A stretch of DNA of 5,749 nt from a plasmid. Below the pieces are notes generated by a model. It was given only the letters and a program-made list of their open reading frames with translations, was not told where the DNA came from and did not search any database. The stretch lies in sequence record NZ_CP102537.1; one strand, given 5' to 3'. Positions 4,247 to 5,749 of the stretch are shown here, piece after piece (within the stretch, counting starts at the first letter, position 1; each line of letters begins with the position of its first letter). Both the position numbers and the translations under genes were made by a program.

Positions 4247-4329
4247 GCTGGGGCACGGGATTGCGCCCCAGCGGACTTTCACCAAACAGCATACAGGCAT
4301 ACCTGTATATTGTCAACAGTTTAAACTGT
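4247..4329. promoter_or_regulatory. Cluster of dyad symmetries in the divergent intergenic region. An 8-bp-stem hairpin GCTGGGGC...GCCCCAGC (4247-4272) falls in the 5'UTR of the leftward operon. The inverted repeat ATACAGGcataCCTGTAT (4291-4308) sits inside the promoter spacer. A perfect 14-bp palindrome ACAGTTTAAACTGT lies at 4316-4329. CTGTAT/ACTGTA motifs recur at 4303-4308, 4325-4330 and 4344-4349. Likely operator sites.
   Basis: Read directly from the sequence. The sites overlap the candidate promoters of both divergent transcription units. Confidence 0.5.
4288..4316 (-). promoter_or_regulatory. Candidate sigma-70-type promoter for the leftward five-gene operon. The -35 TTGACA is the complement of 4311-4316, followed by a 17-nt spacer. 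The -10 TATGCT is the complement of 4288-4293.
   Basis: Perfect -35 hexamer with canonical spacing, read on the minus strand. The spacer contains the inverted repeat ATACAGG-n4-CCTGTAT (4291-4308). Confidence 0.4.
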
Positions 4330-4358: not shown

Positions 4359-4862
4359 ATGAATCAGCCAAAATTCGACATCATTCCCGACGAAACGAAC
4401 CGGGAACACAACACCAGAACCAAAGCGGCACTGGAGCTGCTGGAAAGCAACAAAGAATTACGCGACTGGGCAAAAACCCACTTCCTCGCAGAATTACGCA
4501 ACATGATTACCAATCAGATAGTCGAGGAAGGTCATGAACTCTCAGACGAACTCATGAAGTACGGCGTACGACTGTGCCCCAAAGTCGCCATGGTTTGGAT
4601 CGCCAATGAATTGGAGAACAACGTGGGCGCGATTACAGAATGGCTTGCCGGTTTTGCCTACTGGGAGGGCGACAGCAAGGCAAATCTTGCAAGGGCTGTA
4701 GGAATACGCCAACAAAGCTACGCCACCCATTTCCGGCAGCTAGAAGAAATCGCAGCAGCCCAAAACAAGGCCGACGAAACCGGACAAGACCAAACAATCA
4801 GCCTCCGAGGGGCACCATTCATAATTCACCCCGGACCCAGCGAAGAAGAAGACCAGGAATAA
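4359..4862 (+). CDS. Hypothetical protein, 167 aa, with a helix-turn-helix-like segment (SKANLARAVGIRQQSYATHFRQL) and an acidic C-terminus. Possible regulator. Lower-GC module.
   Basis: Long ORF with coding-like composition and no SD. A TATGAT -10-like hexamer (4347-4352), preceded by TG, ends 6 nt before the ATG, which suggests a leaderless mRNA. Confidence 0.55.
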   Translation: MNQPKFDIIPDETNREHNTRTKAALELLESNKELRDWAKTHFLAELRNMITNQIVEEGHELSDELMKYGVRLCPKVAMVWIANELENNVGAITEWLAGFAYWEGDSKANLARAVGIRQQSYATHFRQLEEIAAAQNKADETGQDQTISLRGAPFIIHPGPSEEEDQE

Positions 4863-4910
4863 GTGTTCTTGTTTTCTTTCATGCGGGATTGTGCGTTCCG
4901 GCCACCGGAG

Positions 4911-4973
4911 AGTCAAATCTTCAAACCGCGAGGCGGTTTGGTGTGTCTATATAGACACACATCAGATTTGACT
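4911..4973. repeat. Nested dyad-symmetry element. Outer 10-bp arms AGTCAAATCT (4911-4920) and AGATTTGACT (4964-4973) enclose a hairpin CAAACCGC-gag-GCGGTTTG (4922-4940) and a perfect 20-bp palindrome GTGTGTCTATATAGACACAC (4941-4960). Candidate centromere/operator for the par module, and/or terminator of the upstream ORF.
   Basis: All symmetries are perfect and were read from the sequence. The element lies 49 bp after the stop of ORF 4359-4862 and about 120 bp before parA. Confidence 0.55.
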
Positions 4974-5079
4974 ATCCGGCGTCCTCCACTGGGATTTCGC
5001 ATTTAGAAAGAAAACCAGAACCGGAAAACATTCGTCAGCGAACCACCAAAACTATTACACTATCAGAATATTAGTGCGA

Positions 5080-5085
5080 TAGAAT
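5080..5085 (+). promoter_or_regulatory. Candidate -10 hexamer TAGAAT, 6 nt upstream of the parA ATG, with no SD. This implies a leaderless parA transcript.
   Basis: Same -10-to-ATG geometry as at ORF 4359-4862. An iteron-like segment ACTATTACACTATCA (5051-5065) lies just upstream. Confidence 0.3.
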
Positions 5086-5091
5086 AACGGC

Positions 5092-5691
5092 ATGATACTT
5101 AGCATTATCGCGTCAAAAGGCGGAACCGGGAAAACGACCAGCAGCATATTCCTAGCCTGCGCCGCTCATACCGCAGACCCGTCACTGTCAATCACCCTCT
5201 TGGACGCCGACCCACAGCAAAGCGCCACGGACTGGGCGGAAGAAGCCGAGCAAAACAAAGACCCGCTCCCTTTCATGGTCAAATACGCCGGAGAATCGGA
5301 CATCGAAAACCTAAAGGACAACGAGGGCCTGACCATCATCGACACGGCACCGGGATTCACCGACCTCACCCAGACAATCATCGCCAAATCAGATCTGTGC
5401 ATCATCACCACCTCACCAACCCAGATTGACGCCCGGAGGGCTTGGAAGACGTTCGAAGCAATCCAAAGAGCAGGCGGAACCTCGGCAATCCTCATCACAC
5501 GAGCCAATACGCGCACGAAGGATTTCAGGGATATGATCGACGACCTGCACAACGACGACGCGAACAATGGAATCCTCTTCGATACCGTCATCAGACAATC
5601 GACCAGATACTCGAAGCCGTTCGGACACACGCCAAAGAAAACCTACGACTATGCAGACGCATGGCAAGAGATACAGAAAGCAGGGGAATGA
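5092..5691 (+). CDS. parA: ParA/Soj-family partition ATPase, small type Ib form, 199 aa.
   Basis: Deviant Walker A KGGTGKTT at the extreme N-terminus (MILSIIASKGGTGKTTS). Walker A' is DADPQ and Walker B is IIDTAPG. Its size and the absence of an N-terminal HTH fit the ParF-like subclass. Confidence 0.88.
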   Translation: MILSIIASKGGTGKTTSSIFLACAAHTADPSLSITLLDADPQQSATDWAEEAEQNKDPLPFMVKYAGESDIENLKDNEGLTIIDTAPGFTDLTQTIIAKSDLCIITTSPTQIDARRAWKTFEAIQRAGGTSAILITRANTRTKDFRDMIDDLHNDDANNGILFDTVIRQSTRYSKPFGHTPKKTYDYADAWQEIQKAGE

Positions 5692-5749
5692 TGGCACTCG
5701 GAAAATTCAGCAGGAAAGCAGCCGAACAGGCACCCGGCGACATCTCAAT
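5688..5749 (+). CDS. 5'-partial CDS, MMALGKFSRKAAEQAPGDIS..., that runs off the window end. Its start overlaps the parA stop as ATGA. Candidate N-terminal flexible tail of a ParG-like centromere-binding partner. It is in frame with the partial ORF at 1-196 across the end-to-start junction.
   Basis: ATG 5688-5690 overlaps TGA 5689-5691. The frame is open to the end. The last two bases AT plus base 1 G form ATG, and the frame continues into the frame-2 ORF ending at 196. Confidence 0.45.
   Translation, partial: MMALGKFSRKAAEQAPGDIS

Follow-up and report, generated by a model that had tools for sequence, protein, structure and literature searches.

The 5,749-bp window analysed here (NZ_CP102537.1) is an entire circular plasmid: ten contigs from metagenomes (L001-L010; 5.78-5.87 kb) share its gene set and cross both ends of the record at 97.6-100% identity. 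Its rep gene (253-1737, - strand) encodes a protein with a Pfam Rep_1 match (PF01446, E 1e-11) and the HUH-like motif HPHIHF, which is 52% identical to Rep of Bifidobacterium pseudolongum pASV479 (the nearest in PLSDB), 36% identical to that of B. breve pB21a, and ~31% identical to Reps of the Streptomyces pIJ101 family (PLSDB protein comparison). Judged by this protein, the plasmid is a rolling-circle replicon of the pIJ101/pC194 Rep superfamily. Rolling-circle plasmids of such a type need a single-strand origin (sso), and an sso must therefore exist somewhere on this one. The - strand also carries an FtsK/SpoIIIE-like ATPase gene (a weak match, below the Pfam cutoff) and four small open reading frames (ORFs). 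On the + strand lie ORF167 (4359-4862), whose homologues are present in all relatives and which, like them, matches no Pfam family even at E up to 5, and parA (5092-5691). An 84-residue ribbon-helix-helix-like (ParG-like) ORF spans the junction of the record (5691-5749 joined to 1-196); its start overlaps the parA stop codon, and the metagenome contigs call one gene directly 3' of parA. Between ORF167 and parA, starting 3 nt past the ORF167 stop codon, is a folded element (4865-5021) that we propose, with a probability of about two in three, to be the sso (lagging-strand origin) of this small Bifidobacterium plasmid.

A branched palindrome between ORF167 and parA

The original prediction described a nested palindrome at 4911-4973, and its parts stand as described: outer arms AGTCAAATCT (4911-4920) and AGATTTGACT (4964-4973) that are perfect reverse complements at exactly these coordinates, a hairpin CAAACCGC (4922-4929), gag, GCGGTTTG (4933-4940), and a perfect 20-bp palindrome GTGTGTCTATATAGACACAC (4941-4960), all read directly from the sequence. 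Together they form only the tip, a three-way junction, of an imperfect palindrome that covers 4865-5021 (157 nt). By a repeat search, the outer arms reach 4900-4920/4964-4984 (21 nt, 86%), and 4865-4880/5006-5021 (16 nt, 94%) form an additional pair at the base; the whole folds as a single long branched stem with the three-way junction at its cap. Folded as single-stranded DNA (ssDNA), 4865-5021 reaches -46.7 kcal/mol (z -8.8) on the + strand and -49.9 kcal/mol (z -11.0) on the - strand, with 0 of 200 shuffles as good in either case; folded as RNA, the + strand reaches -75.2 kcal/mol (z -8.3), which no shuffle equals. The region is the most stable 160-nt window of the plasmid, despite a G+C content below average, and the - strand fold is more stable than the + strand fold in all 14 distinct copies of the element that we aligned. 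Past the stem, the tail reads GGAAAACATTCG on the + strand and ACTTATTCCT on the - strand. The parts of the element, and a candidate nick region, are as follows.

4865-5021, - strand (presumed functional, displaced strand): whole element, candidate sso (inverted repeats I5 and I10, folds, conservation, covariation)
4865-4880: helix 1, 5' arm (basal), paired with 5006-5021; 14 pairs, 6 compensatory, 96% of cells paired
4881-4890: helix 2, 5' arm; invariant ATGCG (4881-4885) in Watson-Crick pairing with CGCAT (4998-5002)
4888-4893, - strand: -10-like hexamer CACAAT, in an internal loop of the folded - strand (promoter scan, all 14 copies)
4900-4920: helix 4, 5' arm, containing AGTCAAATCT, paired with 4964-4984 (repeat I5); 17 pairs, 4 compensatory
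4911-4916, - strand: -35-like hexamer TTGACT, inside the perfectly paired outer stem (promoter scan, 14 copies)
4922-4940: helix 5, hairpin CAAACCGC-gag-GCGGTTTG; 8 pairs, 3 compensatory, 100% of cells paired
4941-4960: helix 6, hairpin with conserved stem 4941-4947/4954-4960 and variable loop; 7 pairs, 1 compensatory, 99% of cells paired
4964-4984: helix 4, 3' arm, containing AGATTTGACT at 4964-4973 (repeat search, covariation)
4993-5005: helix 2, 3' arm (4993-5002) with invariant 3-nt bulge TTA (5003-5005) (invariant alignment columns, consensus structure)
5006-5021: helix 1, 3' arm (basal) (repeat search, covariation)
1565-1601, - strand (rep-sense): candidate double-strand origin/nick region CGCGTAGCGGCCCGCCTTGGGAAAAGACGAATAAAAT, a near-invariant block in relatives

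Relatives were traced through ORF167 homologues (49-99% identity) and a two-anchor DNA pattern scan, which added contigs of B. aerophilum, B. olomucense and human-gut metagenomes; nhmmer located the element in all related plasmids found, with E values of 1e-27 to 1e-65. Alignment A2 holds the 14 distinct copies at a mean column identity of 84%. Nucleotide identity to the window copy is 64-85% for the element and 47-70% for the adjacent gene. The copies differ by single-base insertions and deletions, which rules out coding constraint and means that a 47-codon ORF overlapping the element is not real. No related plasmid DNA turned up in PLSDB in near or distant searches, whether the query was the window or 4850-5095. 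A first short pattern scan of viral contigs with TCGCATTTAGAANGNAAA gave 13 chance matches, none with the element.

RNAalifold recovers the same six-helix structure from the 14-copy alignment. Over its 58 pairs, 97.2% of 809 cells form standard pairs, and 17 pairs have changed on both sides (60 cells); covarying pairs include partners >150 nt apart. The covariation score is 0.226, against 0.099 for shuffled alignments (0 of 500 reach it), and a slid control, with partners shifted by 1-3 columns, leaves only 1-3 pairs that have changed on both sides. The first hairpin, CAAACCGC/GCGGTTTG, is replaced in relatives by CAAACTGC/GCAGTTTG, CAAATTCC/GGAATTTG or CAAACCTC/GAGGTTTG, around loops of GAG, AAG, GAA or a shorter AA; the second changes from GTGTGTC/GACACAC to GCGTGTC/GACACGC, a T-A to C-G exchange seen in five copies; and the outer arm changes from AAATCT/AGATTT to AAATCC/GGATTT or AAATAT/ATATTT. 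By this pattern of substitutions the fold is under selection, and it would thus need a single-stranded form (ssDNA or RNA) or cruciform extrusion. In helix 2, G.T alone joins the five distal positions on the + strand, and on the - strand these positions do not match. Outside these five loop-side positions, 654 of 670 cells are strictly Watson-Crick and none is a + strand G.T; + strand G.T is confined to helix 2, and a few cells elsewhere are G.T on the - strand only. The pairing pattern looks more DNA-like than RNA-like.

Two properties emphasized in the original prediction hold for the window but do not extend to the element in general. The TATATA core of the 20-bp palindrome is specific to the window's lineage, since the hairpin loops vary: relatives keep a 7-8 bp stem with a 4-6 nt loop, among them ATTC, TATTC, ATAC and TGAGG. 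The position 5' of parA, 70 nt upstream in the window, is likewise not a conserved property.

The displaced strand and promoter-like geometry

To assign a polarity to the element, one needs the strand that Rep would nick. A 37-nt block, CGCGTAGCGGCCCGCCTTGGGAAAAGACGAATAAAAT (- strand, 1601 to 1565), is near-invariant in all relatives and well conserved in pASV479, and its core, CCTTGGGAAA, which pASV479 shares, also occurs in rep sense, 5' of rep, in pIJ101 and pSN22. The distance from the core to the conserved part of Rep differs in pIJ101 and pSN22, which marks CCTTGGGAAA as a DNA motif instead of a protein motif. The double-strand origin and nick site of pIJ101-type plasmids have been placed upstream of rep (PMC11600335), and in pUB110 the CTTGATA nick motif is rep-sense and upstream of rep; in the window, the 37-nt block falls within the called Rep ORF of 494 codons. 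Where Rep truly starts is uncertain, as gene callers predict 401-402 codons for it in L020-L023 and the annotation of pASV479 has 353. The CCTTGGGAAA block is the probable nick region of the double-strand origin, and its rep-sense location would make the - strand of the window the one that is nicked and displaced. Two other candidates were set aside. CTTGAAA (~1802-1808, - strand, upstream of the rep start) has a first base that is not conserved, and pB21a differs; the CCTTGGGAAA block was preferred because it is common to pIJ101 and pSN22. CTTGATA on the + strand (688-694) was judged a chance 7-mer inside rep. A literature search for the motif CTTGGGA returned nothing relevant.

The orientation of the element relative to rep and the nick region is identical in every distinct relative, although the genes between the element and rep differ (par cassettes, restriction-modification genes, methyltransferases). 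Activity in a single orientation is the rule for an sso, and gene cassettes often part it from rep (PMC5703833, PMC4595007); the fixed orientation is what an orientation-specific sso requires. The element lies 3' of rep and adjoins the 3' end of the gene whose transcription diverges from that of the transfer genes. This position resembles the Streptomyces order rep-spdA-sso-traR (PMC4170104, PMC11600335) and parallels the Firmicute rule that places cassettes between the leading- and lagging-strand origins (PMC5703833). In L021-L023, a co-oriented restriction-modification cassette separates the ORF167 homologue from the element, which begins a few bases past the last gene of this insertion.

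A promoter scan of the - strand found TTGACT, a 17-nt spacer and CACAAT, read from 4916 to 4888. Across the 14 copies the -35 is TTGAC[T/G] or TTTAC[T/A] and the spacer is 17 nt in every one; the -10 is CACAAT or, in the two most divergent relatives, CATCAT/TACCCT, with only A2 and T6 invariant, and it is on these two positions that a -10 element depends most. Folding of the - strand leaves the -35 paired in all 14 copies (probability unpaired 0.00-0.19) and the -10 mostly open in 13 of them (mean probability unpaired 0.54-0.83); the seven bases after the -10 are paired (probability unpaired 0.04-0.17). An invariant block, TCGCATTTAGAA (4997-5008), overlaps the 3' arm of helix 2 and its bulge and reaches 3 nt into helix 1; we propose that it is the template around the RNA start.

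We propose the following sequence of events, in which the sso would probably be primed by RNA polymerase. Rep would nick the rep-sense (window -) strand at CCTTGGGAAA, near 1580-1590, and leading-strand synthesis would displace this strand as ssDNA. The displaced stretch from 5021 to 4865 is predicted, from folding energy and covariation, to form the long stem with its three-way junction cap, and would presumably do so in vivo. This fold would rebuild a promoter-like site on ssDNA, comprising a duplex -35, a 17-nt spacer, a pre-melted -10 in the internal loop and a duplex start region. Host RNA polymerase would then start a short + sense RNA copying the opposite arm, from around the invariant CGCATTTAGAA (4998-5008), and this RNA would emerge from the base of the stem in + sense. 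Extended by host DNA polymerases, the primer would turn the single-stranded circle into duplex plasmid. What we infer is that the element acts as an sso, that it does so on this strand, and that RNA polymerase, not primase, primes it.

Known origins and rival readings

The element is most likely an sso in kind and, on its sequence and predicted structure, would be a new type outside the characterised sso families. The classical ssoA is ~160 nt long, has a large secondary structure and is primed by RNA polymerase (PMC5703833), which recognises it as a promoter-like structure and makes a short primer (PMC5703833, PMC4595007); ssoA, ssoU, ssoT and ssoW share the conserved RS_B sequence (PMC5703833). 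Like the ssoA of pT181, pLS1/pMV158 and pC194, the element is non-coding, about this long, and a large imperfect stem on the displaced strand in one orientation; the ssoA-like traits seen here are size, fold, fixed orientation and promoter-like geometry. It differs from ssoA in that its terminal loops are variable while the basal stems and bulges are its invariant parts, and in that its host is a high-G+C actinobacterium. Its predicted transcription also heads out through the base of the stem, leaving the loops behind, whereas ssoA transcription runs towards a loop terminator.

ssoT of pBAA1 and sso1 of ICEBs1 are described as built of several stem-loops that must be intact for activity, and as acting in one orientation (PMC4595007); several stem-loops and one fixed orientation are seen here too. 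The Bacillus elements have three consecutive stem-loops, whereas here two hairpins are nested in one long stem. The Streptomyces ssos (sti; pIJ101, pSN22, pJV1, pSVH1) share with it the Rep family, a rep-sense CCTTGGGAAA and a comparable map position; their sso regions are described as direct-repeat-rich (PMC11600335). In Frpo/ssi of F-like conjugative plasmids, an ssDNA stem-loop mimics a duplex -35/-10 at which RNA polymerase starts RNA (PMC11541004, citing Masai and Arai 1997), and this RNA can both prime the complementary strand and read downstream genes (PMC11541004). By that description, the element resembles Frpo in its promoter-spaced hexamers, paired -35 and -10 in a mismatched loop, and its predicted RNA would likewise exit the stem base in + sense, towards parA. 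The settings differ: Frpo acts on the conjugatively transferred strand of Gram-negative plasmids, whereas the element lies on a rolling-circle plasmid with an FtsK-type transfer protein, and such a protein moves duplex DNA in Streptomyces (PMC4170104). A tentative and rather unlikely extension is that the element is an Frpo-like ssDNA promoter whose RNA both primes the second strand and reads in sense into downstream cargo, with the apical three-way junction defining a new structural class of sso. The cargo would be parA-parG in the window; in L016, L044 and L046 it would be a methyltransferase or another gene that points the same way. We know of no counterpart of the apical three-way junction in Frpo.

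A number of observations weigh against assigning 4865-5021 as an RNA-polymerase-primed sso. The element is absent from pASV479, its closest characterised relative, in which the region 3' of the ORF167 homologue folds into different hairpins that cannot be aligned with it; pB21a has a strongly folding region of its own (~900-1100), which cannot be aligned either. The CS-6 hexamer TAGCGT/A is missing from the window copy and 10 others (11 of 14) and is never in a terminal loop; where TAGCG occurs in copies of the element, its location is internal and it is not conserved. At E up to 10, nhmmer with a profile of the element found nothing in pC194 (ssoA) or pUB110 (ssoU), and a covariance model built from A2 found only weak generic hairpins in pIJ101, pSN22, pSNA1, pRE8424, pXT107, pASV479 and pB21a, the best match (16.9 bits) being the unrelated pIJ101 sps palindrome CGTCACGTGACG. 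The promoter-like match, at 9 of 12 positions, is near chance (2 found versus 1.0 expected in 1.5 kb), and in L021 the -10 is predicted to be mostly paired (probability unpaired 0.25). The + strand G.T pairs of distal helix 2 (26 cells) suit a + strand RNA or ssDNA better, and the element closes a + strand transcription unit in every case, so that a role at the RNA level is possible. The nick site is deduced from a shared motif, and RNA-polymerase-independent priming has been reported for pSN22 (cited in PMC4170104), which makes priming by primase a live alternative.

These same + strand features underlie a rival in which the element is the RNA 3'-end structure of the ORF167 unit, acting as a terminator without a U-tract or as a 3' exonuclease barrier that stabilises the mRNA. 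It always ends the + strand unit, even behind the inserted cassette of L021-L023, its RNA fold is very stable, and distal helix 2 pairs only by G.U on that strand. We nonetheless consider this reading unlikely. A scan of 4865-5030 found no T-run and no terminator-like site on either strand, whereas the plasmid's hairpin at 1812-1837 has a T-run, and the intrinsic terminator suggested by the original prediction thus lacks its usual signature. Five of the six helices contain 0 G.U among ~670 + strand cells, which is unusual for a selected RNA; a 157-nt junction with invariant bulges that outconserves its neighbour gene far exceeds what a terminator needs; and the element matched no Rfam family at E up to 1. 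It may still act secondarily at the RNA level. The promoter-like hexamers themselves could be an ordinary - strand duplex promoter for an RNA antisense to the 3' end of ORF167, the palindrome being incidental; they were found by a promoter scan, and ~110 nt further along the - strand (4783-4771) is a weak terminator-like site. This is very improbable, since the match is near chance expectation and such an antisense RNA would hold only the basal 5' arm and cannot explain arm-to-arm covariation over 157 nt.

A site acting as duplex DNA is distinctly unlikely, whether a stability locus (like SpdA2/sps of pIJ101, perhaps bound by ORF167), a multimer resolution site (Xer-like, for example) or a clt locus recognised by the FtsK/SpoIIIE-like transfer protein. 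In its favour are the short perfect palindromes, the adjoining ORF167 common to all relatives, the palindromic stability motif between rep and sso in pIJ101 (PMC4170104), and the weakly matched FtsK/SpoIIIE-like ATPase. Against it, the half-sites drift freely as long as pairing is kept and the spacer of the second hairpin varies over 4-6 nt, both unsuited to a fixed protein site, and covariation links partners >150 nt apart. The clt loci known so far consist of 8-bp direct repeats in arrays (PMC4170104), and the element contains no such repeats. A Pfam scan of the window proteins revealed no recombinase, and nothing was found in support of the recombination (resolution) site that had been suggested.

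We give almost no credence to the element as a parA-parG centromere or operator bound by the ParG-like protein, ParA or both, the role towards which the original prediction leaned. In type Ib par systems the site is often found 5' of parA, where the element lies in the window; the element is, however, conserved in L013-L015, which have no par genes, and is kept in L016-L023 and L046, whose ParAs differ in length and are encoded on the opposite strand and far off. When related par loci are compared, the element does not travel with the par operon. Repeat arrays accompany the par cassettes instead: four to five overlapping direct ACTATGACACTATCA repeats lie at 196-270, directly 3' of the parG-like stop, with a related copy, AACTATTACACTATCA, at 5050-5075 upstream of parA, and L017 has 8-bp TGTATACA repeats next to its own parA (array at 756-989), while a repeat search found no array in the element itself. 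The repeats at 196-270 and 5050-5075 are likely to be the real par centromere and operator. Long-range compensation over 58 pairs is also unlike a protein site on duplex DNA. Among the roles first suggested, it is the last, a secondary-structure signal such as an sso, that fold, covariation and orientation favour.

Cargo, control regions and hosts

The slot between the element and rep varies in L013-L023, L044 and L046, where it is occupied by par cassettes of different types, by an EcoRI-like methylase together with a GmrSD/HNH gene, by methyltransferases (D12, N6/N4), by genes of DUF7690/DUF7687, or by a coiled-coil gene. Two differing backbones are present on the 16.6-kb contig behind L020, which is either a cointegrate or an assembly chimera. 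In L047-L050 (short contigs of 2-2.5 kb), an ORF167 homologue of 178 residues is fused directly to a methyltransferase gene, and the fused gene adjoins the conserved rep-upstream region without the FtsK-like operon.

Hairpins lie 5' of the rep start (1761-1847): one formed by 1761-1769/1789-1797 and a G+C-rich one at 1812-1837, both covarying among relatives. The hairpin at 1812-1837 is followed by TTTCCTTTTA on the + strand and forms a terminator-like site antisense to the rep leader, which may mark a counter-transcribed copy-control RNA; a simple promoter scan near 1761-1847 found no + strand promoter for such an RNA. A perfect 14-bp palindrome, ACAGTTTAAACTGT (4316-4329), is found where the transfer-gene operon and ORF167 diverge. 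It adjoins the -35, whose first base it shares, of a strong - strand promoter-like site, TTGACA-17-TATGCT (10/12, within 4288-4329), and is a candidate operator, perhaps for ORF167. Upstream of parA, TAGAAT (5080-5085) follows AACTATTACACTATCA, with only 6 nt left to the start codon (ATG); parA may be transcribed without a leader.

The host genus is fixed by the presence of the element on contigs of Bifidobacterium isolates. These plasmid-sized contigs, L037 (5.2 kb) and L039 (7.4 kb), come from B. aerophilum TRE17 and B. olomucense DSM 109959, both of which we take to be of primate origin. The window's own plasmid variant is widespread in human-gut metagenomes, and its ParA protein was found in 312 blocks of the contig collection, nearly all on 5-10 kb contigs.

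Nothing is overturned by these results, as a plasmid specialist would expect an sso on such a plasmid; the backbone in question is common in human-gut metagenomes, and the ssos of high-G+C Gram-positive plasmids are poorly characterised. Cloning vectors for bifidobacteria derive mainly from small cryptic plasmids, and a vector without its sso accumulates ssDNA and is unstable. The candidate origin and the probable nick site would provide a defined cassette to keep or test in vector building. If the Frpo-like extension were true, cargo would be expressed from a single-stranded replication intermediate. The paired -35 and pre-melted -10 offer a testable model of how RNA polymerase may recognise ssDNA in Actinobacteria.

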